Source: Candidatus Altiarchaeota archaeon
Lineage (GTDB): Archaea; Altiarchaeota; Altiarchaeia; IMC4; SCGC-AAA252-I15
Length of the DNA: 35,785 nucleotides
Assembly: GCA_043800705.1 (NCBI GenBank)
Contig: JAZDMS010000009.1
Span: 1 to 35,785 of the forward strand
Direction: 5' to 3'
Part shown: positions 1,157 through 26,333 of the stretch, one piece after another
How the letters are laid out: each line of letters opens with the position of its first letter
How positions within the stretch are numbered: position 1 is the stretch's first letter
Program-made: the position numbers and the translations under genes
The notes under the pieces: model-generated
The model's database searches: none
Told to the model about the DNA's origin: nothing
What the model saw: only the letters and a program-made list of their open reading frames with translations

Positions 1157-1212
1157 GTTGCGGCCGCGTCTTTTATTGTAATAATTGAATATTTTATTCC
1201 TTAGTGGTTGGT

Positions 1213-4200
1213 ATGGTTTCTAAGATACGCAAGAGAGACGGCAAGACGGAGAAGTTCAACAAGCAGAAGATCGCTGAGGCGATCCACAAGGCCATATCGT
1301 CCGTCGAAGGCAGGGACGGTGAGACTGCGGAGAAGCTTGCGGACAAGGTTGTGAAGGCTGTCGACAGGAAGTTCAAGGAAATTGTCCCCACCGTCGAAGA
1401 GGTCCAGGACGTCGTCGAGGAGACGCTGATGGACAGCGCCGAATCCGGCGTCGCCAAGGCCTACATACTCTATCGGGAGGATCGGAAGAAGATAAGGGAG
1501 GCCAAGTCGCTGATGGGCGTCGACGACGACATCAAGCTATCACTCAACGCCATCAAGGTGCTCGAGAAGAGATACCTCATGAAGGATGATGAGGGGCGGG
1601 TCATAGAGACTCCGGGGCAGATGTTTCAGAGGGTCGCCGGCAACATAGCCCAGGCCGACCTGTTGTACGACAAGGACGCGGACGTAAAGAAGACCACCCG
1701 GGAGTTCTACCAGATGATGTCGACCATGGAGTTCATGCCCAACAGCCCCACATTGATGAACGCCGGCCGCGAGCTGCAGCAGCTTAGCGCATGTTTCGTC
1801 TTGCCGGTCGAGGATAGTATGGAGAGCATATTTGAGGCGATAAAGAATACTGCGTTGATTCACAAGAGCGGCGGGGGGACTGGGTTCAGTTTCTCGAAGC
1901 TGAGGCCCAAAGGCGACATTGTGGCGTCGACGTCCGGTGTGGCGTCTGGGCCGCTGTCTTTCATGAACGTCTTCAACGCCGCGACGGAGGTAATTAAGCA
2001 GGGTGGGACGAGGAGGGGCGCGAATATGGCGATTCTAAGGGTCGACCACCCGGATGTTTTGGAGTTCATAGTCGCGAAGGAAAAGGAGAACGTCCTCAAT
2101 AACTTCAATATCTCCGTCGGGTTGACGGAGGACTTCATGAAGGCGGTTGAGTCCAACCAGGAATACGACATGCTCAACCCGAAGAGCAGGAAGCCTATGA
2201 GGAGGATCAGTGCGAGGACGGTCTTCGACCTCATTGTGACGATGGCGTGGAAGAACGGGGAGCCTGGGATCGTGTTCCTCGACAGGATAAACAGGGACAA
2301 TCCTACGCCATTCCTCGGGGAGATGGAGTCGACAAATCCGTGCGTGAGTGGTGATTCGTTAGTGTCCACATCGAATGGTTTGTTGCGGATGGATAAGATT
2401 GCTGAAAGGTTCGGAAACGGAGGAGTGGGGGCCGTGACTGATTGCAGGGTGCCGAAACCGCTAGAAAACGGCAGTGGTATTCTCCTCCAGGTTCAGGAGG
2501 CGGGTGTCGAGCTGAATCAGGTCTCTAAGGCATGGTGCAGTGGGGTGAAGGAGACTTATAGGCTCGTCACAAAATCCGGTTATGAGCTTACAGCCACGTC
2601 AGACCATATGATTCTCACAACTGGCGGATGGTTGGAGCTTCACGATATTGTGCCGGGGAAGCATGCGGTTTTGATACAGGCTGGTAGTGGGTACTTCAAC
2701 AAGGACACAAAAATCGGCTTCGTTGTCGAAGACGATTATAAAGGCGGCAATGGCAGGAGCTACCGCCATAATTTCCCCAAGACATGGTCTAGGGAGCTTG
2801 GTCAGGTTCTGGGATGGCTTGTCGGAGATGGCTGGCTAAGGGAGGGGGACGCCGATCGGAGGGTCGGTTTCACATTCGGCTCTGATGACTCGGAGGTTTT
2901 GGAGTATTTGAAGCCCGTATTGGACGGCATGTATGGACGCGATGTGAAGGCGGTTATCCGAAAAGGCGGCGTGATACATCTCAGCTATCATGGAAAATAC
3001 TTCGTCGACTACTTTAAGAAACTTGGTGTACGGGGTGTCGGTTCAGCGGAAAAAACAGTTCCTGAAACGCTCTACTCAGCGACGGAAGAGGCTGCTATCG
3101 GGTTCCTGCAGGGTTTGTTCACCTCTGATGGGACTATCCGGGATAATCCTAAATCCAACAGCTCATGGATTGCTCTGACATCAAAGAGCAGACATTTATT
3201 GCGGGGCGTGCAGCTACTTCTTCTGAATCTGGGCATCAAAAGCCAGATTTTAACTAGGAGCAGGCCGCCCAGAACGGGGTTGTTCGAGTATACGGATAAA
3301 AGCGGGCAAGTGAGACTGTATGGATCGGATGGGGTGCTTTTCGAGTTGGGGATATTCGGCGAAAGCAGAGAATTGTTCAGGAAGCGTATAGGTTTCATCA
3401 GCAGGCGCAAGCAGGAATCCCTCGACAACATACGGTTTAAGACGTTCAGGAAAACAGACTGGAGCGATGAGGTGCTGTTCGTCGAGAAATCAGGGCAAAT
3501 TGCGGTTTATGATTTGACCGAACCATTGACGCATTCGATGATAGTCAACGGCATAGTAGTTCACCAATGCGGCGAGCAGCCGCTTTTGCCGTATGAGGCG
3601 TGCAACCTCGGTTCCGTTAACCTCTCCAAGATGGTGGACGGCGGCCAGATCAACTACAAGAAACTCAGGCGGGTTGTCCATGTCGCAACCCATTTCCTCG
3701 ACAACGTCATAGACATGAGCAAGTTCCCCTTGGACAGGATAGAGAAGATGGTGAAATCCAACCGGAAGATCGGTTTGGGGGTCATGGGCTTCGCGGACAT
3801 GCTCGTCGAATTGGGGATACCCTACAACAGCGACCGGGCCGTTGAGGTGGGCCGGGAGGTTATGAAGTTCATAGACGGGGAGTCCAAGGCGACGTCGGTC
3901 GAATTGGCGCAAAAGAGGGGTTCGTTCCCCAACTTCAGAAAGAGCGTCCTGCCGCAGAAGGGGCTCAAGCAGATGAGGAATGCGACGACCACGACGATCG
4001 CGCCGACGGGGACGATCAGCATCATATCCAACTGTTCGGGCGGGATCGAGCCGCTCTTCGCCATCTCATTCATCAGGAACATCCTCGACAACACGGAGAT
4101 GCTCGAGGTCAACCCAATATTCGAGCGGATCGCAAGGGAGCGGGGCTTCTACAACGACGAGCTGATGAGGAAGATCGCCAAGAGGGGGACGATACAGGAT

Positions 4201-4572
4201 ATAGCGGAGATACCGGAGGATGTGCGGAAGGTCTTCGTTACGGCACATGACATCTCGCCGGACTGGCATATCCGGATGCAGGGGGCGTTCCAGGAAAGCA
4301 CCGACAATGCTGTGTCGAAGACTGTGAATTTCGCGAATCACGCGACGACGGATGACGTACAGAAGGTCTATCTGCTCGCGTATCACCTTGGCTGCAAGGG
4401 AGTGACGATCTATAGGGACGGCTCCAGGAGCAATCAGGTCCTGAACATAGAGGCTGTGAAGAAGTCGGCGGCTTCGCAGGAGAAATGCCCTGAATGCGGG
4501 GGGAGCATGACCGTCGAGGAGGGCTGCAGCACGTGTCACAACTGCGGGTTCTCCTATTGCAGCGCAGCATAG
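1213..4572 (+). CDS. nrdJ: Adenosylcobalamin-dependent (class II) ribonucleotide reductase with N-terminal ATP cone, intein-containing
   Basis: ATP cone (IRKRDG..FNKQKI), FMPNSPTLMNAG, QLSACFV, GGTRRGANM, NP/CGEQPL split by an intein, TIAPTGTIS, KGVTIYRDGSR and a C-terminal CxxC..CxxC. Start at ATG 1213, or GTG 1204. Confidence 0.97.
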   Translation: MVSKIRKRDGKTEKFNKQKIAEAIHKAISSVEGRDGETAEKLADKVVKAVDRKFKEIVPTVEEVQDVVEETLMDSAESGVAKAYILYREDRKKIREAKSLMGVDDDIKLSLNAIKVLEKRYLMKDDEGRVIETPGQMFQRVAGNIAQADLLYDKDADVKKTTREFYQMMSTMEFMPNSPTLMNAGRELQQLSACFVLPVEDSMESIFEAIKNTALIHKSGGGTGFSFSKLRPKGDIVASTSGVASGPLSFMNVFNAATEVIKQGGTRRGANMAILRVDHPDVLEFIVAKEKENVLNNFNISVGLTEDFMKAVESNQEYDMLNPKSRKPMRRISARTVFDLIVTMAWKNGEPGIVFLDRINRDNPTPFLGEMESTNPCVSGDSLVSTSNGLLRMDKIAERFGNGGVGAVTDCRVPKPLENGSGILLQVQEAGVELNQVSKAWCSGVKETYRLVTKSGYELTATSDHMILTTGGWLELHDIVPGKHAVLIQAGSGYFNKDTKIGFVVEDDYKGGNGRSYRHNFPKTWSRELGQVLGWLVGDGWLREGDADRRVGFTFGSDDSEVLEYLKPVLDGMYGRDVKAVIRKGGVIHLSYHGKYFVDYFKKLGVRGVGSAEKTVPETLYSATEEAAIGFLQGLFTSDGTIRDNPKSNSSWIALTSKSRHLLRGVQLLLLNLGIKSQILTRSRPPRTGLFEYTDKSGQVRLYGSDGVLFELGIFGESRELFRKRIGFISRRKQESLDNIRFKTFRKTDWSDEVLFVEKSGQIAVYDLTEPLTHSMIVNGIVVHQCGEQPLLPYEACNLGSVNLSKMVDGGQINYKKLRRVVHVATHFLDNVIDMSKFPLDRIEKMVKSNRKIGLGVMGFADMLVELGIPYNSDRAVEVGREVMKFIDGESKATSVELAQKRGSFPNFRKSVLPQKGLKQMRNATTTTIAPTGTISIISNCSGGIEPLFAISFIRNILDNTEMLEVNPIFERIARERGFYNDELMRKIAKRGTIQDIAEIPEDVRKVFVTAHDISPDWHIRMQGAFQESTDNAVSKTVNFANHATTDDVQKVYLLAYHLGCKGVTIYRDGSRSNQVLNIEAVKKSAASQEKCPECGGSMTVEEGCSTCHNCGFSYCSAA
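2341..3567 (+). mobile_element. 409-aa intein with LAGLIDADG homing endonuclease, inserted at the RNR active-site NP|CGEQ
   Basis: Begins CVSGDSLV after ESTNP. Block B LTATSDH; endonuclease motifs LGWLVGDG and FLQGLFTSDG; block F VYDL. Ends NGIVVHQ followed by +1 Cys (CGEQPL). Confidence 0.95.
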
Positions 4573-11791: not shown

Positions 11792-11950
11792 CTACGGTCC
11801 GGTGAAGCCGCACTTGGTGCACCTGTATTTGGCTGCCAGCGTCCTGCAGGATTCGCACCTGATAATGGTCTCCATGGAGCAGCTTGGGCATTTGAATTCG
11901 CTGTACCTGAACACGGCCTCCTTGCCGCAGCTTGAGCATTTCTTAACCAT
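11792..11950 (-). CDS. 52-aa archaeal zinc-ribbon protein, DUF1610/HVO_2753 family (not in ORF track)
   Basis: MVKKCSSCGKEAVFRYSEFKCPSCSMETIIRCESCRTLAAKYRCTKCGFTGP: four CxxC motifs and the characteristic CGFxGP end. Confidence 0.93.
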   Translation of the reverse strand: MVKKCSSCGKEAVFRYSEFKCPSCSMETIIRCESCRTLAAKYRCTKCGFTGP

Positions 11951-12186
11951 GGTCTATAATTACGCCCTCGCCCTTTAAGAATGCTGGATATGGCAAAAAT
12001 GGCGGTCTTCTGGGGGTATCTGGCAAGGCGACAGTTCAGCGGGCGCCGACATTCCTGCCTGTTTTATCGGGCCTCATGGTCGGCTGGGTTACGTTTGCGA
12101 TCTGGTGGGCCTGCTGAGGGAGATAGAGGACGAGGCGTTGGAAAAGGCCGCTATACCGGTGGGTTCGGGTTTTTAGCGGCTGCGGG

Positions 12187-12209
12187 AAGTATGTCATGCA
12201 AGTATGTCA
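12187..12209 (+). repeat. Two direct AAGTATGTCA boxes at 13-bp spacing
   Basis: AAGTATGTCA at 12187-12196 and 12200-12209. GTATGTCATGC is identical to 15546-15556. Confidence 0.7.
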
Positions 12210-12415
12210 CTGAATAATCGGCGGGATTCTGCGGCCTACATGTCATTGTGGTGCTGTGGGGATGTTCTGCGGGCCTTTGTGGGTTTGGGGGCCGGAGGCG
12301 GGGGTGTGGTGATTCGACGCCGCAAGGCAGATGGTCAAGTCCATGCTCGAATTCGATCCGCCTTTTACAGCGTATTTAATCGGCTTTGATGTAGAGTTAA
12401 GGGAGGAGTCCAAAG

Positions 12416-13723
12416 ATGGTTGGCGAAGCTAAGGCGGGGGATAAGGTAGAGGTCATGTATCAGGGGAAAACGCATGTCGGCATCCTGATGCAGCGTCCTG
12501 GTCTGGCCCCTTCTGGCATCGTCACGTTGAAGCTCGCAAGCGGCTACGACATCGGCCTCGTGGAGTCAAAGGTAGAATCAGTCCGCGTCCTTGAGTCTTC
12601 GATGGCAATGAAGCGGCATACCGGCGGCGACGTCTCTTCGGAACCTTCCCTGCCGACGGTCTCGATACTCTCGACGGGCGGGACAATAGCGTCCAAAGTA
12701 GACTACAGGACCGGGGGGGTCTACGCGGCGTCGAGCGCATCCGACCTTCTGGAAAGCATGCCTGAACTCAGCCGGCTGGCCAATATACGGACTGATTCGG
12801 TTATGAACGTCATGAGCGAAGACATGAACCCGAAACTGTGGGTCAAGATCGCGCATGCTGTGGCAAAGGAACTCAACGGGGGCGTAGACGGCGTCGTCGT
12901 CACGCACGGAACCGATACGATGGGATACTCCGCCGCGGCCCTCTCCTTCATGCTGAGAGGTCTTGGCAAACCGGTGGTGTTGACCGGCGCCCAGAGGTCT
13001 ACCGACCGGGGGTCTGCGGATTCGTTCCTAAACCTCGCGTGTGCCGTCGCTTTCGCAAAATCCGACTACGCCGGCGTCTATCTTGTCATGCACGGCAGCA
13101 TGTCCGACAGCTTCTGCCTCGCCCACAGGGGTACAAAGGTCCGGAAGATGCACACCACCCGCAGGGACGCCTTCAGGTCGGTCAACTCGTCCCCGGTTGC
13201 GAGAATACTCCCTGACGGGAAAATAGAGCCCCTCTCGTCCGGCCTTCCGCAAAGGTCAGAATCCACTGTGTCGGTCGATGCAAACCTCGAGGAAAAGGTG
13301 GCTCTGGTAAAGGCATATCCCGGGATGGATCCGGGCATACTAGACTACCACCTCAAGAAGGGGGTAAGGGGTGTAGTCATCGAAGGGACTGCGTTAGGCC
13401 ATGTCCCGACCACCATCAAGGAGACATCGCTCATCCCGGGAATAGAAAAACTCATATCCTCCGGTGTGCTCGTGGCAATGACTACCCAATGCCTTTTTGG
13501 CCGGGTCAATCCGTACGTATACAGCAACCTAAGAGAAGTCTCCTCCAAGGGAGTCGTCTACTGCGAGGACATGTTGCCTGAAACCGCGTACGCCAAGATG
13601 ATCTGGGCACTTGGTAAGTCACGGAATGTGCAGGCGGCGAAGTCCTTGATGCTTCAGAACATCGCAGGCGAGATCACAACCCGGACCGAAGCTGACGAAT
13701 CGTCAGCTGACTTAATGTTGTGA
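12416..13723 (+). CDS. gatD: Glutamyl-tRNA(Gln) amidotransferase subunit D
   Basis: GatD N-domain (LKLASGYDIG) plus asparaginase-like STGGTIASKVDYRTG, HGTDT, GAQRSTDR, KMHTTRRDAF, DMLPETAY. SD GGAGG. Confidence 0.97.
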   Translation: MVGEAKAGDKVEVMYQGKTHVGILMQRPGLAPSGIVTLKLASGYDIGLVESKVESVRVLESSMAMKRHTGGDVSSEPSLPTVSILSTGGTIASKVDYRTGGVYAASSASDLLESMPELSRLANIRTDSVMNVMSEDMNPKLWVKIAHAVAKELNGGVDGVVVTHGTDTMGYSAAALSFMLRGLGKPVVLTGAQRSTDRGSADSFLNLACAVAFAKSDYAGVYLVMHGSMSDSFCLAHRGTKVRKMHTTRRDAFRSVNSSPVARILPDGKIEPLSSGLPQRSESTVSVDANLEEKVALVKAYPGMDPGILDYHLKKGVRGVVIEGTALGHVPTTIKETSLIPGIEKLISSGVLVAMTTQCLFGRVNPYVYSNLREVSSKGVVYCEDMLPETAYAKMIWALGKSRNVQAAKSLMLQNIAGEITTRTEADESSADLML

Positions 13724-13746
13724 CTTACTTTTGGCTCATTTGATTA
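13708..13746 (-). repeat. TGACTTA box array at the gatD 3' end; imperfect inverted copy of 15511-15553
   Basis: TGACTTA at 13708 and 13721, degenerate TGGCTCA at 13732. TGTGACTTACTTTTG (13719-13733) is the exact reverse complement of 15529-15543. Confidence 0.8.
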
Positions 13747-13836
13747 TGCGCAGAAGACCATATCCTCCCTATTGGAGATGTATGCGAACGCTCCTGCGCT
13801 TAATGGTAAAAACTACGGCATTTAAGACGCAGATAT

Positions 13837-13998
13837 CTATCCTTTGAGTTTTGTGATGACTTCCAGGAGGTCCTTCAGGCTGTCATAGATAATGAAACTG
13901 TTCCTGAGCTTTTCCGCATCGCTCTCTCCGAGTGCGTTGAGCTTCTTAAGCTTCACATACTGTTCATCAGTCAACGTCACAAGAACCTTCTTACTCAT
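13837..13998 (-). CDS. 53-aa ribbon-helix-helix (CopG-like) DNA-binding protein (not in ORF track)
   Basis: MSKKVLVTLTDEQYVKLKKLNALGESDAEKLRNSFIIYDSLKDLLEVITKLKG: alternating beta strand, helix, GxS turn, helix. SD-like GGTGTGAT and TATA-like TTTATATA upstream. Confidence 0.8.
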   Translation of the reverse strand: MSKKVLVTLTDEQYVKLKKLNALGESDAEKLRNSFIIYDSLKDLLEVITKLKG

Positions 13999-14006
13999 AT
14001 CACACC

Positions 14007-14036
14007 AGATAATATATTATCTACAAGATATATAAA
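14007..14036 (-). promoter_or_regulatory. Perfect 16-bp palindromic operator plus TATA box of the RHH gene
   Basis: AGATAATATATTATCT at 14007-14022; TTTATATA on the minus strand at 14029-14036. Confidence 0.65.
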
Positions 14037-14174
14037 TAAGATATTTACCGCCCATCTAGGGATACTATATAGCTACTCCTAATATATTCTCCCGGATATC
14101 TATTGGTTATAAATCTGCAGGCTATGTGAGAGTTGGTTATATCGCATTTTCAGACTGAATTAAAAATTCATGAC

Positions 14175-15356
14175 TTATTTTTTTGCCAATAATCGTCGTG
14201 CATTGTCTGAAAGCGTATAAACATACTGTAAACGGCCTATACGACTTTCTTTCCCCCTTCTGACAATGACGGGATAGGGTACGTTCGGCTTTCTTGCGAC
14301 TTCCATCTTGTTTAGGCCGCGTAATTTCCTGATCAATGATCCGATGCTTCTGATGTCCTTCTTCAGCGTCTCAGACAGCTCAGAGATGCTCAGCGACTCA
14401 TGTTCCAGAAGAAGGTTTACGATGTCCTGCTGGGTGGGTGACAGCTCGTTCATGAATCCATAAATCCCTTCCCTTTTGGCTAAGATGGGCTCTTCCGCCA
14501 ATTCCTCTGCGGATTCTTCCCCTGCGTCGTCGGCTTCGTCGGCAGGCTGGGCAACATCTCTTACGGGCGGAATCTGCTCAAGCCTCCCCAGGACGCTTTC
14601 GACGAAGTTGGTGTCGACCGACTCTATCCCCTTGGCAGCACACTCCTCGATGACCTTCTGGCCGTTCTCGAGAAGCTGCCTCGGAACCTGTGAAGATGAC
14701 TCGCAGAGCCTCCTTAGGCCGTCTTTCGTAAACGGGGCTATGCTTCTTCCCCCCGCCCATTCGATTCGTTCCTTGACCAACTCCTCCAGGTCCTCCAGCT
14801 CAAAGGCCCTCAGCCTTATAGACTTGGATTTGCGGTCCCGGAAGCTAGTTTCTGCCGTTATATTGTCTTCCAGGCCAGGCAGGCCGAGGAATATCATGAA
14901 TAGGTTGTCTGCGCGGTCATTGAGTATCCTCAGCCATTTGAAGATATCATTGTCGTAATCCTGGGCCTCGTCGAATATGAGGAGCATCTTTTCGGAGCCA
15001 AGACTCTTCTGCAACACCTCGCCGAATGAGGTCCGGTCCGGGTTGAAAAACAGCCTCTTATACACAGGGAGGGCGTTTTTTATCCTCCTCATCAGGACCT
15101 CGACAGGTTCGTAGCTGTTGAAGGCCACTACATATCCGATGCTTGCTGGCTTTTCCATAACCAGCTGATTCATGAATGTGGTTTTCCCGTAGCCTATAGG
15201 GGCTGTGATAACCATAATCCTGTCCCAGCCCCCGATACATTCACGGACTTCATCATACTCCTCCATTCGCCCTATGATGGGTATGTCAAGTGATGTGGAT
15301 TTGATGAACGGGCTCTTGGTCCATCCCAATTTCCTGTAGTATTCTTCTCTATCCAT
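14175..15356 (-). CDS. AAA+ ATPase (ExeA/AAA_22-like) with acidic linker and C-terminal winged-helix domain
   Basis: YYRKLGWTKSPF N-terminus, Walker A APIGYGKTT, Walker B LLIFDEAQ, Arg-finger region SFRDR, sensor-2-like VPR, acidic linker, then LSPTQQDIVNLL..LSISELSETL..IGSLIRKL..YVYTLS (wHTH pattern). Confidence 0.88.
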   Translation of the reverse strand: MDREEYYRKLGWTKSPFIKSTSLDIPIIGRMEEYDEVRECIGGWDRIMVITAPIGYGKTTFMNQLVMEKPASIGYVVAFNSYEPVEVLMRRIKNALPVYKRLFFNPDRTSFGEVLQKSLGSEKMLLIFDEAQDYDNDIFKWLRILNDRADNLFMIFLGLPGLEDNITAETSFRDRKSKSIRLRAFELEDLEELVKERIEWAGGRSIAPFTKDGLRRLCESSSQVPRQLLENGQKVIEECAAKGIESVDTNFVESVLGRLEQIPPVRDVAQPADEADDAGEESAEELAEEPILAKREGIYGFMNELSPTQQDIVNLLLEHESLSISELSETLKKDIRSIGSLIRKLRGLNKMEVARKPNVPYPVIVRRGKESRIGRLQYVYTLSDNARRLLAKK

Positions 15357-15360
15357 TTGC

Positions 15361-15556
15361 TAAATCAATTTGATTTTAATCATTAAAAAACCAAAAAAAG
15401 GAGTCAAAAAATGATTCATGGACTTATCATGACTTATATTCTTGACTTAAAATTTATTGGGTTAAAAAGATTAATTCACCATATTTTTTCCGAAAAAATA
15501 AAATCAAAAAGTAAGTCAAAGTGAGTCACAAAAGTAAGTCACATTGTATGTCATGC
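15361..15556. promoter_or_regulatory. AT-rich region with inverted arrays of TGACTTA/TAAGTCA boxes (origin- or centromere-like)
   Basis: Left: GGACTTA 15420, TGACTTA 15430 and 15443. Right: TAAGTCA 15512, TGAGTCA 15522, TAAGTCA 15535, TATGTCA 15547. An AT-rich spacer between them contains the palindrome TATTTTTTC-C-GAAAAAATA (15482-15500). The repeats are certain; the function is inferred. Confidence 0.7.
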
Positions 15557-15726
15557 TATTTACTCCTAAACCCCAGAATACCTCAACATTCCTGTTGTAG
15601 ATGAATGCGAGATGTGCTGTTTAAGGATAAATACTCCGGCATTTGGGCTGGAGATATTTAATATATCCATGAGCGCATAATACAACTCCGTAGCCCGGAT
15701 TTAGATTGTAATTCACTGGCGGAAAA

Positions 15727-16938
15727 ATGTTTGTTGGGATCGACGACACTGATTCGGTTGACGGCATGTGCACCACATACCTTGCCGCAAGACTATGCCT
15801 CAAACTAGGGGTGAAAGAGACCCCCTGCCTAATCAGACTGAACCCGAACATCCCATACAAGACCCGGGGCAACGGAGCGGTCGCATTCAAGACCGAGAAG
15901 CGGCACAAGAAGGAAATCCTCTCCTTTGTGAAAAAGAACTCGATGCTGGATGACCCTAAGACGAATCCCGGCGTCGTCTTCCTTGGAGACGAATCCCGCT
16001 CCCCCATGCTCCAAGAATTCTATCGACGGGCCGTCTCGGAACACGTCACCATCGAAGAAGCGGAAACAGCCGCATCATCAGCCCGGGCAGAATTCCATAA
16101 GTTCAAGAACGGGAGGGGGATCATAGGAGCCCTCGCAGCGATCGGCTTCACCGGAGACAGGACCTATGAGATCATCGCCTACAGGGACCGTGCGAATTGG
16201 GGTCAGCCGGCAAGGAAAATAGACCTGGAATCGGTCCGCAGGATGGACAGGGAACTGTACCCGAAGGTATTCGACAACATCGGCGCGGACGGAAAAAGGA
16301 TCCTAATAACCCCCAGAGGACACGACCCGATATTCTGTGGAATACGGGGAACATCCGAGGATGCGGTGAACGCAGCATGGGATATGGTGAAGCCGCTTGA
16401 AGCGATAGAGCTCGTTCAGGTATTCGCGACCAATCAGGCCACCGACGCCCACCTGAGGCGAAAAGGCATCGGCGAGCTGAAGCCCTATGATTGTGCAATC
16501 GTCACCGGCAGGGTAATCTCTAAACCGGGGACGGTGGCCGGAGGCCATACGATCTTCAGGCTCGAAGACGATACCGGGGCGATAGACTGTGCTGCATATA
16601 AGAAGTCCGGCAGCTTCCGAAAAATTGTAGCCAACCTAGAAGTCGGCGACAAGGTATCCGCATATGGGGGGCTGGGAAAATACCACAAAACACTTAACCT
16701 GGAGAAAATCGAGGTCTTGTCTCTTAGCATCAGGGAGACTGTGGAAATCCCGTCCTGTTGCGGAAAGAACATGACATCAACTGGGAGAGACGGGGGATAC
16801 AAGTGTAAAAAATGTGGCAAAAGAATAAGTCACAAGGAAGTCAAAGTAAGTCACGGTTTTGGGGCTATTTCCCCAGGCACATACGATGTGCCTCCTGGAT
16901 CTAGAAGGCACCTTAGCAGACCTGTTTTCCTCCGGTAG
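15727..16938 (+). CDS. tiaS: tRNA(Ile2) agmatinylcytidine synthetase
   Basis: GIDDTDS.DGMCTTY, LIRLNPNIPYKTRGNGA, GRGIIGALAA, TNQATDAHL, OB fold (GGH..CAAY..LNLEK), Zn ribbon, RRHLSRP. Confidence 0.96.
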   Translation: MFVGIDDTDSVDGMCTTYLAARLCLKLGVKETPCLIRLNPNIPYKTRGNGAVAFKTEKRHKKEILSFVKKNSMLDDPKTNPGVVFLGDESRSPMLQEFYRRAVSEHVTIEEAETAASSARAEFHKFKNGRGIIGALAAIGFTGDRTYEIIAYRDRANWGQPARKIDLESVRRMDRELYPKVFDNIGADGKRILITPRGHDPIFCGIRGTSEDAVNAAWDMVKPLEAIELVQVFATNQATDAHLRRKGIGELKPYDCAIVTGRVISKPGTVAGGHTIFRLEDDTGAIDCAAYKKSGSFRKIVANLEVGDKVSAYGGLGKYHKTLNLEKIEVLSLSIRETVEIPSCCGKNMTSTGRDGGYKCKKCGKRISHKEVKVSHGFGAISPGTYDVPPGSRRHLSRPVFLR

Positions 16939-16939
16939 G

Positions 16940-17170
16940 GTGTGAAGATCATCGGCTGTCGTTCGATCCGTTGGCAGGTTGTTTAGTCCTGGCATGATCT
17001 CTCATTGTGTGAAGATCATCGGCTGTCGTTCGATCCGTTGGCAGGTTGTATAGTCCTGACATGATCCACCATTGTGCGAAGATCATCGGCTGTCGTTCGA
17101 TCCGTTGGCAGGTTGTATAGTCCTGGCATGATCCACCATTGTGCGAAGATCATCGGCTGTCGTTCGATCC
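16940..17170. repeat. 67-bp tandem repeat, 3 full copies plus a partial 4th
   Basis: GAAGATCATCGGCTGTCGTTCGATCC starts at 16944, 17011, 17078 and 17145. Units are near-identical with no unique spacers. Confidence 0.95.
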
Positions 17171-17653
17171 CGCCATTCTGGTGTCGTGTTCGCCGAATAT
17201 CCTCTCCATCCTCTCCTCCTTCGTAGGCTTCCTTGTCATGAGGCTGTCTCCGCCGGCATTTGTCAGGCGTAGCGCGACCCTATTGCAGTCGTAGATGCTC
17301 AGGAAATACAGGATCGACACCGCCAGGAATATGGCATAGGCGGCATACTGTAAGGGCATCAGCGAGTAATTGACGACTGTCTCGGTAGGGAATATAAGCA
17401 TCTCCAATCCCACGACCAATAAGGCGCCGGCCACAAAGACGGCTGTTGACAGAAAGGCCTTCTTTTTATCTCCCAGATAGACATACCCAGCGCCCACGTA
17501 TCCGAAAACGATCTGCAGAAGGACCGCATACAACCGGTTCCCCCCGCCCCGACGGACCCTCTTAGGCCCGACGATATCCTTCGCTATGCAGTCGTATTCC
17601 GAAGACCTCTTTACGGGAGTGGTCCCGTCGTCGCTCATTCCAGGAAGGCTCAT
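17150..17653 (-). CDS. Hypothetical membrane protein (TM2-like motif)
   Basis: AVLLQIVFGYVGAGYVYLGDKKKAF followed by two more TM helices. Confidence 0.75.
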   Translation of the reverse strand: MSLPGMSDDGTTPVKRSSEYDCIAKDIVGPKRVRRGGGNRLYAVLLQIVFGYVGAGYVYLGDKKKAFLSTAVFVAGALLVVGLEMLIFPTETVVNYSLMPLQYAAYAIFLAVSILYFLSIYDCNRVALRLTNAGGDSLMTRKPTKEERMERIFGEHDTRMAGSNDSR

Positions 17654-19369: not shown

Positions 19370-19537
19370 CGTTGATTACCTGTTGATTCTCTAATTTTCC
19401 ATATTTTTTTTTATTTAATCGCTTCAGGGTCCCATCTCCCACCAATTACTACCTCTAGTATCAATATAATTAAATATCTAAATCTTTAGTTATTTAGATA
19501 ACTAAAAACTTACATACATCAATCAATCAATCATTGT

Positions 19538-20152
19538 TTAATTTATTAGTTGTTTGATTATTGCATGGAACTCATCTTCTTCCATGTCCGGCCTGTTCCT
19601 AACATAGTACCCATTTCCTATCCTCGTAAACCTGCAGCCGAAGCTGAAATAGGGTACGGTGGTGCTTTTTCCGTCGCGGAAAACATCCACTTCGCTTTCA
19701 GGGATCCCGGATTCGTTACATTCCGTCAGGGTGTCGTCATCCTTGTCGAATATCCAATGATATGCGACTATGCTTCCCGCATCGACGTAATCCCTCGCCA
19801 ACTTGTCGAATATCGGCCCGCTCCAGTTGCAGTGTTCGCAGTCGGAGCGGCCGTACATCCTGATCACAGGCTTCCCGTCTATCCTACAGATCGGACGATG
19901 TGTATCCTGAAATGTCATAATCAGCGGATCCAATGTCGTGGACGTGGTCAAATAAGGTCCAATATCCGGGATCATAGCCGAAGAAGCGAGTGTAGCCGTA
20001 GTCGTCGACGGAACCGCATATGCGAACTCGTCGCCTGTCGTGGTCGTGGGCTCGGGAAACGATGTCGTCGTGGTCGTCTCCAAGCCGGCGTCGGGGCCCT
20101 GAACGCACCCGCAGACTAACAGGACGACGATGAGCGCCCAAAAAAATCTCAT
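19538..20152 (-). CDS. Thioredoxin-fold secreted or lipid-anchored protein with Thr-rich linker
   Basis: Signal ending LLVCGC (lipobox-like), TTTTT linkers, CEHC motif and a cis-Pro-type TVP. Confidence 0.8.
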   Translation of the reverse strand: MRFFWALIVVLLVCGCVQGPDAGLETTTTTSFPEPTTTTGDEFAYAVPSTTTATLASSAMIPDIGPYLTTSTTLDPLIMTFQDTHRPICRIDGKPVIRMYGRSDCEHCNWSGPIFDKLARDYVDAGSIVAYHWIFDKDDDTLTECNESGIPESEVDVFRDGKSTTVPYFSFGCRFTRIGNGYYVRNRPDMEEDEFHAIIKQLIN

Positions 20153-20256
20153 ACGAAACAAACGTTTTTCAACCATATAAATCCTCGGGCTCCCCGGGCA
20201 GCATCCCCCATTTTTTACCTTTGCGGAACAATACCTATCGGTCCAAACGTATTGAG

Positions 20257-23765: not shown

Positions 23766-23840
23766 TATCCGGAATCGGCGCATCGGACGGTCTGCAATGC
23801 CGTGTACCCGCATATTAGGTTGTCCTTCCAGTTGGTGTAT

Positions 23841-26333
23841 ATGCCCGCGCTAAGGGAGAATAAAGGCAATCCCCATAAGCCCCTTGAACTTTTTGTCCAT
23901 ATAGACGAGCGCAGGGACGCGCAGTTGGACCGTGCGTTATCGGGTATGGCCCCTCTGGCTTCGCATCCATTTCTTCGAGACCACGTCAAGGACGTCCTGG
24001 GCAGGATAGGCGCATCCGAGCTCGAGAGCCTCGGACGCAACTTGCACGGGCAGGAAGGGACGAGAGGGGTGGGGGTCAGCATCTTGGCATACCTTTCAGA
24101 GAACAGGCATGAGGAGCTTGGCGCAGGCAGGACGCAGGAGCTGAGGTCGCTCCTCGCTGGAGAGGACCATCGACATGTCGAAGAATACGAGCATACCCTC
24201 CATCAGTACCTTGAAATCAGATCTAACGGATTTTTTCTGGATGAGGGGCGGAAAGTCGTGGCCCAGGATGCGACCGAAGAAGTCAAAAAAGGCGGTCTGA
24301 GGATGGATCTCATCCTCGGGGGCGAAGAAGATAAACCAAGCTATTACGTGACCGGAGTCGGTGCCGGTAGCGTCTCGTTTTTCGAGATCGGGCCCGGGGG
24401 GGACAGCGCGAAAATGACGGTCGCGGACTCTGACCGGCTCATGCAGCTTGTTACGGGGGGCGGCTACCGTGCATATCAGGTGACTGACGGGCGGGGCAGG
24501 TATTACACGGATGTTGTCGAAAACAGGCAGAGATTCATGTGGGATCCGCTCGATTCGGAAAGGGATTTGGGGCTGACGAGGGCGGCTGCAGCAGGATTGA
24601 ACCGGGGAGAAAAAGTCAGGGATGCCGCCTTGGATTTGGATCTTATGGGCGAGCGCCTGCTCATAGCCGCAGGGAGGGAGGAATCTAAATATCAGCAACC
24701 GCGGTGCAGGCTGCTTACCGATGTGGAAAAGGACCCGCGCGGTGACGGATATCTCAGGCTGACGAACGTGAGAGTCGCGGAAATTTTAGGGCCGAACGGT
24801 TCCGTGACGCCGATCGGGATCAAGACGCTCCTCGACTCATTGAACGGGGAGACGCTCGTCTGCAGGTCGGCCGAATCCCGTTCCAAACCGGCACTCTTGA
24901 CGCGGGAAATATCCCCCCATCTTCGCGGATACGACATCACGGAAAGGATAGGCTCTGAGGGGTTCTCTCCGGGGATGGTCATCACCGGGTCGGATGAGCG
25001 AATCTCATATGGGGTAGAATATCCGAAGCCGGTCGCATACATCGCCGGCAAAAGCGGGGATACATTCGATGTCCTTGCTTTCGAAGCGGACGGGGTTAAA
25101 CGTTACCGTAACATGAGGGCGGAGGACTTGAAAGCCCTTGTCGAAGCCGGCAGCGGCAGAAGGGTGTATCAGCCCCTTGACATCAACCAGCACACGATGG
25201 AACGCAGCAGGGGCCGGCTCGCCAGGCGGGAAATGACGGAAGAGCTTGTATTGGGGATGGATGACGAAATTCGAAGAAGATTGGATTCCGGGAATACGGT
25301 ACGGCTCAGGCTGAAGGGATTCGTCGACAATTCCGGGGAAATATGTTCGGTGGGGCCTGCAACGAGGCGTTCGGTGTGGGACAACTCCGGATTCGATGCG
25401 TCCGTCGAACTAAAAAAATCGGGTGCCGGAACATATACTGTCTCCAAATTCGAACTGGAGCGGATCACTCACGGGAATATCACCCTAAACCAGGCCATTC
25501 ATTTGGTCGGCTCATTCGAGGATCATCAAGTCTCCGTCCCCGAAAAATATGCGGGCTCATATGTGCCGTCCGCGGCGGAAAAAAATGATTTGGGAACGGA
25601 TTATGAGGGGCGCGCAAGACACTTCAATGTCCGAATGGATGGAGAGACACTATGTTGCCGGAGGCTGAACGCCCAGGAAGTAGACCCAGAATACCTTAAT
25701 CGGTTGAAGGGCATGGAAATCGAAAGGGAGGCAGATTTCGGCCAGGTAAGGTTTCCCAACGCCACTGGCTGGAGGGGCAGATATCTCGGCGGAGGGGAGG
25801 AAAAGGACATATTCCTAGTAGTCGACGATAAAAACCGGGCATTTTCAATGGTTTTCAGGGACCTAGAGTCCGCCAAAATCAACCACCATGGAACAGACGA
25901 CTTCTACTCGATCGGATCCGTCGCAACCACCGTCAAAGTAAAGGGCGAACTCGGAGAAAAGACCGTCATCAGGGGATTCCAGGTCAGGGAATACGAGCAC
26001 GGATACTCGGGGGGCGAGATACCCTTCATAGAGGGGGCCAAAGGCTGGCGGATGCGTTCGCTTAACGCAGTCGCTTCTATTCCTCACCGTCTGGTCGGGA
26101 GTTTCATGGCATACTGGGAGAGGAAGAAGGTCCTAGATTCCCCACACGCCCACTACCGCCCTGAGGAAACCCACTCCGGCAATTTCATGGTCGTCGAATC
26201 AGACCGCCGAGTGGACGAATTCGGCAGAAAGTATCGGATTCCCCTGCCTGTGATAAGGAAAGGGAAAGACGGCAGAAGCGGGCTGACACTCAGATGGTAT
26301 GATACAAGAGCCCTCGAACTGACAGAATACTGA
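23841..26333 (+). CDS. Large hypothetical protein with an internal ~230-aa duplication and a possible degenerate kinase-like C-terminus
   Basis: Uninterrupted ~830-codon ORF (start ATG 23841 or GTG 23802); no family recognised with confidence. Confidence 0.7.
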   Translation: MPALRENKGNPHKPLELFVHIDERRDAQLDRALSGMAPLASHPFLRDHVKDVLGRIGASELESLGRNLHGQEGTRGVGVSILAYLSENRHEELGAGRTQELRSLLAGEDHRHVEEYEHTLHQYLEIRSNGFFLDEGRKVVAQDATEEVKKGGLRMDLILGGEEDKPSYYVTGVGAGSVSFFEIGPGGDSAKMTVADSDRLMQLVTGGGYRAYQVTDGRGRYYTDVVENRQRFMWDPLDSERDLGLTRAAAAGLNRGEKVRDAALDLDLMGERLLIAAGREESKYQQPRCRLLTDVEKDPRGDGYLRLTNVRVAEILGPNGSVTPIGIKTLLDSLNGETLVCRSAESRSKPALLTREISPHLRGYDITERIGSEGFSPGMVITGSDERISYGVEYPKPVAYIAGKSGDTFDVLAFEADGVKRYRNMRAEDLKALVEAGSGRRVYQPLDINQHTMERSRGRLARREMTEELVLGMDDEIRRRLDSGNTVRLRLKGFVDNSGEICSVGPATRRSVWDNSGFDASVELKKSGAGTYTVSKFELERITHGNITLNQAIHLVGSFEDHQVSVPEKYAGSYVPSAAEKNDLGTDYEGRARHFNVRMDGETLCCRRLNAQEVDPEYLNRLKGMEIEREADFGQVRFPNATGWRGRYLGGGEEKDIFLVVDDKNRAFSMVFRDLESAKINHHGTDDFYSIGSVATTVKVKGELGEKTVIRGFQVREYEHGYSGGEIPFIEGAKGWRMRSLNAVASIPHRLVGSFMAYWERKKVLDSPHAHYRPEETHSGNFMVVESDRRVDEFGRKYRIPLPVIRKGKDGRSGLTLRWYDTRALELTEY

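Follow-up and report, generated by a model that had tools for sequence, protein, structure and literature searches.

Does an AAA+ ATPase outside the Orc family assemble on short, phased DNA boxes in archaea, and would it do so for self-control, for origin firing, or for chromosome organization? The question is posed by a 35.8-kb stretch of a Candidatus Altiarchaeota genome (contig JAZDMS010000009.1; the whole stretch is referred to here as the window), in which two opposed arrays of a short box lie between the divergent genes for an ATPase and for TiaS. The box and the AAA+/winged-helix ATPase of this locus are both conserved and are accompanied by a tiny partner protein, in a phylum without a cultured, genetically tractable member. 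A first-pass annotation of the DNA had proposed an origin-like core at positions 15400 to 15556, with a cooperative operator of the divergent promoters as its alternative. The reading that we favor, and to which we give about an even chance, is that the arrays form an iteron-like self-operator at the divergent tiaS/ATPase promoters that is read by the neighboring ATPase.

The arrays have the orientations, spacings, and coordinates that had been assigned to them, with three boxes, a spacer, and four inverted boxes (Table 1), and the AT-rich spacer of about 60 bp with its 9-1-9 palindrome is also present. Successive boxes are 10 and 13 bp apart in the left array and 10, 13, and 12 bp apart in the right array, and the consensus, TGAC[T/G]TA, is often followed by a C and T-rich bases. 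Region 15400-15556 (72.6% A+T) contains four exact boxes and eight with at most one mismatch, whereas dinucleotide shuffles of the same region contain on average 0.06 and 0.93, and none of 5,000 shuffles attains either observed count. Exact TGACTTA occurs 10 times in the window, always within 13615-16853, against 2.4 expected window-wide, and 0 of 100 shuffles reach 10 or more. One-mismatch boxes are not enriched over the whole window (53 versus 60.6 expected), and the signal is therefore one of local clustering. Scans for tRNAs and Rfam families returned no matches. Chance repeats in AT-rich promoter DNA, functionless in themselves, would be in keeping with the base composition of the region and with the missing window-wide surplus of one-mismatch boxes. 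However, this explanation has a negligible probability, being refuted both by the shuffles and by the recurrence of the box and its order in all three other upstream regions that could be compared.

Table 1. Features of the locus, with positions in the window and strand
Feature	Position	Strand	Details
Two TATGTCA boxes, 13 bp apart	12190..12209	-	At 12190 and 12203; ~215 bp upstream of gatD
Three exact boxes, gatD 3' end	13615..13727		13615 minus, 13708 and 13721 plus; last overlaps gatD stop codon
Conserved small protein, 53 aa, strand-helix-helix pattern	13837..13998	-	Downstream of ATPase gene in 5/5 genomes
Exact box overlapping ATPase stop codon	14171..14177	+	Position weight matrix (PWM) score 18.3
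ATPase P0001, 393 aa	14175..15356	-	ExeA-like N-terminal motif, AAA_22 + lid, acidic linker 259-298, C-terminal winged helix ~300-393
AT-rich stretch before ATPase ATG	15357..15399	-	TATA-like TTTTAATGATTAAAA at -37 to -17; by eye; absent from other loci
Two decayed boxes	15400..15418		GGAGTCA 15400-15406, TGATTCA 15412-15418
Left array, 3 boxes, TGACTTA orientation	15420..15449	+	GGACTTA 15420-15426, TGACTTA 15430-15436, TGACTTA 15443-15449
AT-rich spacer between opposed arrays	15450..15511		62 bp, 80.6% A+T
9-1-9 palindrome	15482..15500		TATTTTTTC-C-GAAAAAATA; inverted-repeat search of window
Right array, 4 boxes, TGACTTA form on minus strand	15512..15553	-	Plus-strand TAAGTCA 15512, TGAGTCA 15522, TAAGTCA 15535, TATGTCA 15547
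tiaS (tRNA-Ile2 agmatidine synthetase), divergent neighbor	15727..16938	+	Open reading frame (ORF) family scan
Secondary cluster, 3 boxes in 3' coding end of tiaS	16826..16853	-	TAAGTCA, GAAGTCA, TAAGTCA; spacings 11 and 10

A genome scan with the ATPase recovered four further loci, L001 to L004. As L003 lacks its 5' end, upstream DNA was compared among the window, L001, L002, and L004, and the ATPases of these three loci are 58 to 61% identical to that of the window. All four share the gene order tiaS, intergenic region, ATPase gene, 53-aa ORF, and gatD, and L003 keeps the ATPase gene, the small ORF, and gatD. With Sua5, QRPTase, TctA, and NrdD encoded nearby in the loci, this is a fixed chromosomal neighborhood between housekeeping genes and not an island. 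The same box, as TGACTTA or TGACGTA, lies between tiaS and the ATPase gene in L001, L002, and L004. Read toward the ATPase gene, each of these regions has one or two inverted boxes, three direct boxes, a spacer of 54 to 95 bp (about 72% A+T), one inverted box, one or two direct boxes, and the ATG, such that the opposed-array anatomy beside the ATPase gene is conserved in three further genomes. When the four intergenic regions are aligned, the right array of the window corresponds to the array of three boxes in L001, L002, and L004, and its left array corresponds to the single post-spacer box of L001 and L002 (TAAGTCA, in the orientation of the ATPase gene). The decayed boxes of the window roughly align with the L001 and L002 boxes whose starts precede the ATPase ATG by 22 and 9 bp. 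The boxes of L004 are mostly TGACGTA, and box spacing ranges from 7 to 18 bp across the loci. The arrays are thus real, conserved, and locus-specific predicted binding sites.

Their placement relative to genes is most regular outside the window. Upstream of the ATPase ATG, boxes start at 31, 22, and 9 bp in both L001 and L002 and at 37, 27, and 14 bp in L004, with a TATA-like element just upstream of the first ATPase-proximal box in all three (by eye). On the tiaS side, each of these loci has a box that starts 42 to 49 bp ahead of the ATG. Because TATA-like elements stand about 30 to 45 bp before the start codons of other window genes (by eye), these boxes would be on or just after core promoters, which is where archaeal repressors usually bind. 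The box placement in L001, L002, and L004 is therefore the geometry expected of an operator, and in all three the box-to-start positions agree with the alternative offered by the first-pass annotation, cooperative binding at an operator for the divergent promoters.

Boxes also extend beyond the intergenic region. A PWM trained on the main arrays only was used to find further sites, which in the window fall in or near tiaS, the ATPase stop codon, and gatD (Table 1). Across the five genomes, 15 non-training boxes lie in 19.0 kb of tiaS-ATPase-small gene-gatD blocks and 3 lie in 56.1 kb of flanking DNA, a 14.7-fold ratio in density (binomial p = 4e-7). Where the small gene and gatD converge with their 3' ends, L001 (7540 and 7547) and L003 (1333 and 1365) each carry a pair of boxes. 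L001 and L002 carry boxes at the same place in tiaS as the window, in other codon phases and encoding other residues, and L004 has two one-mismatch G-variant boxes at the tiaS 3' end (by eye). These boxes fall just past the CxxC of the zinc ribbon, in a segment that varies among the proteins (ISHKEVKVSH, VSHGGIMSRKVSR, and IRSHEIKSREV). The variable protein segment and the differing codon phases suggest that the tiaS-internal boxes are kept as DNA and not as protein. Elsewhere in tiaS, a strong TGACGTA occurs at the same place in L001 (4792) and L004 (4790), with PWM scores of 17.5 and 17.1; this stretch encodes GKYVK (by eye), and its conservation may be due to the protein and not to a function as a site.

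The protein collection contains 79 relatives of the adjacent ATPase, 78 of them at 38 to 80% identity and the last an outlier at 28%. Those that are named are Altiarchaeota or Altiarchaeales records, and on these matches the family appears confined to Altiarchaeota-type records. The mean column identity of the ATPase is 55%, its most conserved part is the winged helix, and the invariant residues G55, G57, K58, T59, D129, R175, R197, and R226 fit an active, oligomerizing AAA+ ATPase, given the roles that such residues presumably play. The AlphaFold2 (AF2) model, with a predicted local distance difference test (pLDDT) score of 85.3, consists of an AAA+ core with its lid, the acidic linker (pLDDT below 50), and the winged helix with a long hairpin. 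As weak winged-helix matches to Sta1, Lrs14, and HVO_A0114 also cover residues 300 to 390, the gene encodes a predicted DNA-binding domain.

Sequence comparisons place the AAA+ part in the AAA_22 group. Pfam assigns AAA_22 (2.4e-12) and AAA_14, with no Cdc6_C and no other Cdc6/ORC family at E <= 0.001. In NCBIfam the ExeA-like model TIGR03015 matches at 2.2e-11 over residues 47 to 260, with Orc1/Cdc6 models absent at E <= 1, and PHROGs gives a MuB-like "DNA transposition protein" family (PHROG 296, 2.4e-13). The family profile, when compared to PDB sequences, best matches the helix-turn-helix (HTH) of PF0864, an archaeal Lrp/AsnC-type regulator (7.5e-4), and no ORC/Cdc6 chain at E <= 10. Remote relatives number 9,243 at E <= 0.001; among 113 that were scanned, 109 have AAA_22, 26 have the Penicillinase_R winged helix, 10 have HTH_24, and 28 have a weak match to an ORC-CDC6-like family, while Cdc6_C is absent from the 25 families listed for them. 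Neighbors in the Atlas are archaeal, often DPANN, AAA_22 proteins of 350 to 390 aa, which by structure lie near ExeA-family clusters. Plasmid relatives are limited to bacterial ExeA-like genes at 23 to 30% identity, phage sequences contain no relatives of the ATPase, and the PADLOC defense families give just two weak winged-helix matches. The protein would accordingly be an ExeA/MuB-like member of the AAA_22 group, predicted to be related to ExeA/GspA (COG3267; TIGR03015-like) at the superfamily level only. Membership in ExeA/GspA itself was rejected, as the score of 43.7 bits is far under the family cutoff of 324.5 and the C terminus is a winged helix, without a membrane/peptidoglycan-binding part.

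Fold comparisons point in another direction. In a whole-chain Foldseek search against the PDB, Cdc6/Orc1 proteins come out on top (Drosophila Cdc6 at 1e-11, Pyrobaculum Cdc6, and Sulfolobus Orc1-1), and the 43 listed rows comprise 27 ORC/Cdc6 chains, 11 RFC-type loaders, 4 RuvB chains, and 1 plant resistosome, with RFC and RuvB chains appearing from E ~1e-9. A viral fold library gave generic clamp-loader and AAA+ matches only. Modeled alone, the winged helix (five sequences; pLDDT 67.5, a poor model) resembles MarR/ArsR/Lrp regulators only at E >= 0.01, with no Foldseek match at E <= 0.001 and no Orc chain among the matches listed. The ATPase has an initiator-type AAA+/winged-helix architecture, yet it is not Orc1/Cdc6 by any sequence test. 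An Orc1/Cdc6 identity of the adjacent gene was consequently dropped, since the fold alone resembles these proteins, and a scan of 6 + 24 ORFs of the window and 29 ORFs of the loci revealed no canonical Orc1/Cdc6 gene.

The small protein encoded downstream is, from the pattern of its predicted strand and helices, probably ribbon-helix-helix-like, and Pfam has no family that it matches. It forms 28 clusters with 71 to 96% identity. In 10 of them the longest contig has the same length as that of an ATPase cluster, a hint, though no proof, that the two genes are on the same contigs. Its strand KKIMVTL is identical in L002, with TGACTTA boxes, and L004, with mostly TGACGTA boxes, whereas the wing of the L004 ATPase is altered (NRRVDVY versus GR-QYVY). 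The gap between the ATPase gene and the small gene measures 136 to 216 bp.

The spacer between the arrays probably carries core promoter elements. By nearest-neighbor energies, it lies in 15421-15520, which ranks third among the least stable 100-bp stretches of the window, after 19462-19561 and 13988-14087. The destabilization foreseen for an unwinding element is thus present but not unique to this site, and the spacers of L001, L002, and L004 are likewise among the less stable stretches and in no locus the least stable. The least stable 50 bp of each of these three loci instead lies between the ATPase stop codon and the small gene (L001, ~7304; L002, ~7222; L004, ~7455), and the corresponding window DNA, 13999-14174, overlaps the second least stable 100-bp stretch there. 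The small gene may have a strong promoter in this downstream DNA, or the DNA may be a more plausible site of unwinding than the spacer. The palindrome may represent two back-to-back elements resembling the transcription factor B recognition element and the TATA box, and it has no counterpart in L001, L002, or L004. A spacer hairpin was also considered as a special feature and dropped, as shuffled sequences fold just as well as the single-stranded spacer (z = 0.09) and the palindrome has no excess hairpin stability. GC skew tracks the coding strand, being positive in 14 of 16 plus-strand genes and negative in 12 of 15 minus-strand genes. Its cumulative minimum between 12 and 23 kb is at 20248, at another divergent gene pair, and the extremum that an origin was expected to produce at the arrays is missing. 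Skew is uninformative at the scale of the window.

In the self-operator that we favor, the most likely reader of the boxes is the ATPase, through its C-terminal winged helix. One asymmetric box would be bound per protomer, and the disordered 40-residue linker would let winged helices reach boxes 9 to 13 bp apart in either orientation, while the AAA+ bodies oligomerize, presumably in the ATP-bound state. Such an assembly would occupy both flanks of the promoter-bearing AT-rich spacer and would repress or tune the ATPase gene in a negative feedback, and probably tiaS too. The extra boxes at the tiaS and gatD 3' ends and at the ATPase stop codon would raise the local density of sites and could permit looping. 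Variable spacing and the use of both orientations suit a tethered monomeric reader, and the single case of L004, in which a box variant goes with a changed ATPase wing and an unchanged strand of the small protein, also points to the ATPase. We infer the identity of the box-reading protein, its ATP dependence, repression, and looping.

Several observations weigh against this reading. An ATPase this conserved must do more than control itself, and about a dozen boxes, with clusters in coding DNA 1 to 2 kb away, are far above what a simple autorepressor needs. The arrays of the window are detached from the start codons, at 64 to 197 bp from the ATPase ATG and 174 to 215 bp from the tiaS ATG, with a TATA-like element (by eye) nearer to each ATG than the arrays are. 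The decayed boxes are set off from the ATPase ATG by some 55 bp of additional AT-rich DNA, and between the right array and tiaS there are 170 bp. That seven boxes are kept despite this detachment hints at a role without promoter overlap. Furthermore, all promoter positions were read by eye, the upstream arrays were compared in three other regions, and the small neighboring protein could be the box reader instead.

That last arrangement, in which the ribbon-helix-helix-like protein reads the boxes and the arrays are its operator, with the ATPase merely one controlled gene, strikes us as rather unlikely. Ribbon-helix-helix dimers typically bind short arrays of direct or inverted repeats, as in the heptads of pSM19035 omega, the iterons of ParR, and the MetJ boxes, and the small protein is as conserved as the boxes and always in the locus. 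However, cooperative arrays of this type usually require a fixed spacing, whereas the spacing here varies, the box is asymmetric, and the strand of the small protein stayed the same between L002 and L004 despite the change of box while the ATPase wing differs (a single comparison). A wider role for both proteins, which would gather on the box-rich domain of about 4.5 kb as a centromere-like or chromosome-organizing site for segregation or compaction, is quite improbable. An ATPase gene followed by a small-protein gene in all five genomes, with repeat arrays upstream, is the layout of parM-parR/parC, parF-parG, and the archaeal segA-segB. The conservation of the small protein in its 28 clusters and the suggested sharing of contigs by 10 of them agree with this, as do the boxes that extend into coding DNA across the whole block, as parS sites do, and the match of the AAA+ part to a MuB-like PHROG family, MuB being a protein that polymerizes on DNA. 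Yet the ATPase is an AAA_22 AAA+ protein and not of the ParA (deviant Walker) or ParM (actin-like) type, the small protein is without a Pfam match, and the gap that parts the two genes contains the most AT-rich DNA of the locus, so that they are probably separate transcripts.

A replication origin, the reading that the first-pass annotation had put foremost, would here have a non-Orc initiator and is unlikely in our view, although part of the evidence for it holds. The ATPase would load on the arrays, melt the spacer or the AT-rich DNA behind its own gene, and recruit MCM, and the promoter boxes would only let the initiator gene control itself, as is usual for such genes when linked to an origin. 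Inverted boxes around an AT-rich stretch, the mark of an oriC, occur in the window, L001, L002, and L004, and the window arrays persist though detached from start codons. Box clusters flank the ATPase gene on both sides, which recalls the bipartite oriC that surrounds dnaA in Bacillus, and ribonucleotide reductases and Nre are encoded nearby. The ORC/Cdc6 chains lead the fold list, and the two to three helices between AAA+ strands 2 and 3 resemble an initiator-specific insert (by eye). The opposed arrays, AT-rich stretch, and AAA+/winged-helix gene match the layout of Sulfolobus oriC1, and a non-Orc initiator has a precedent in WhiP at Sulfolobus oriC3, both as described in PMC12141716. On the other hand, neither Pfam, NCBIfam, nor the profile search against the PDB gave an Orc1/Cdc6 sequence match, and the models that the AAA+ part does match are of the ExeA and MuB types. 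RFC and RuvB chains are close behind in the whole-chain fold list, the lone winged helix resembles MarR/ArsR/Lrp (a weak model), neither the window nor any locus has its least stable DNA in the spacer, and the skew follows gene strand with its minimum away from the arrays. The boxes are also unlike origin recognition boxes (ORBs): in what is a weak test, an ORB-core 11-mer has 7 two-mismatch matches against 9.5 expected, none of them near the locus. A canonical initiator is probably encoded elsewhere in Altiarchaeota, going by two genomes scored as 1 for Cdc6-1 and left blank for Cdc6-2 by a Pfam-profile-based method (PMC12680538, Supplementary Table 1). What stands of the proposed origin is therefore its anatomy, the AAA+/winged-helix neighbor, and the Cdc6/Orc1-like fold, whereas an Orc1/Cdc6 sequence match, ORBs, and a skew extremum were not found. 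Slightly more doubtful is the fuller version, in which Altiarchaeota would have a chromosomal replicator new to archaea, with an ExeA/MuB-like ATPase as initiator on DnaA-box-like arrays of 7 to 8 bp around an AT-rich region. With the same degree of doubt, such a replicator might work beside or instead of an Orc1/Cdc6 origin, much in the way that oriC3 of Sulfolobus is defined by WhiP. Both the origin and the centromere-like readings are kept alive by the large number of boxes, by their 4.5-kb spread, and by their survival in the window away from start codons.

The locus can be compared with several known systems. In bacterial oriC/dnaA, short asymmetric opposed boxes are bound by the HTH of the oligomerizing AAA+ protein DnaA, which autorepresses dnaA. 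The Altiarchaeota locus likewise has short asymmetric boxes in opposed, roughly helically phased arrays on both sides of an AAA+ gene, but it is archaeal, its protein has no DnaA sequence match, and an unwinding element would lie between the arrays and not beside them. Plasmid centromeres with small ribbon-helix-helix binders, such as parC/ParR of R1, omega of pSM19035, and SegAB of Sulfolobus, double as operators. They share with this locus two-orientation repeats at an NTPase (nucleoside triphosphatase) promoter followed by a gene for a small strand-helix-helix protein, but here the ATPase is an AAA+ protein with its own winged helix, not ParA/ParM, and the locus is chromosomal, between housekeeping genes in every genome inspected. 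Like ATPases of the ExeA/GspA and MuB/TniB types, the protein has an N-terminal W..PF motif, an AAA_22 core, and a lid with a PR sensor motif; unlike them, it has no membrane/peptidoglycan part and no transposase neighbor and has instead a winged helix (predicted to be sequence specific) and box arrays. In Sulfolobus oriC1, ORB2, a DNA unwinding element (DUE), and ORB3 stand beside orc1-1, and one protomer binds each box with a defined polarity, according to the account of this origin in PMC12141716. The inverted boxes around an AT-rich stretch by an AAA+/winged-helix gene resemble it, whereas the boxes here are 7 to 8 bp, about a dozen in number, and not ORBs, the protein is ExeA/MuB-like, and the system is known from sequence alone. 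Saccharolobus Orc1-2 is a noninitiator Orc1 that regulates transcription, with DNA binding and an ATP cycle that control expression and not origin firing, as set out in PMC9738581. The favored self-operator would resemble it in having an AAA+ and winged-helix protein as regulator. Orc1-2, however, is a genuine paralogue of Orc1 and acts globally on many promoters, while the boxes of the ExeA-like family are so far found only at its own locus.

Full-text literature searching returned no passage describing the ATPase family, the box, or an Altiarchaeota origin, and replication indices, where PMC8755723 takes them up, are discussed for bacteria only. Should the locus be an origin, it would be the second archaeal chromosome origin with a non-Orc initiator after WhiP, with a bacterial-style box architecture.

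Other features of the window were recorded as well. A 67-bp tandem repeat (3.4 copies, 95% matches) at 16940-17170 directly follows the tiaS stop codon and overlaps the 3' end of a TM2-domain ORF (17150-17653), without a counterpart in L001 to L004. Upstream of gatD, a GC-rich gap of 476 bp (11940-12415) holds short doubtful ORFs only, together with the TATGTCA boxes at 12190 and 12203; it matches no Rfam family and is not similar to any part of the other loci. An 843-aa ORF at 23802-26333, right after the Nre gene, has no Pfam match at E <= 0.001. The gene at 1204-4572 encodes a class II-type ribonucleotide reductase large subunit with an intein that bears a LAGLIDADG endonuclease domain. Finally, G+C content drops to 0.44 to 0.48 around the ATPase gene (13500-16000), compared to about 0.55 elsewhere, although the gene order is kept in five genomes.

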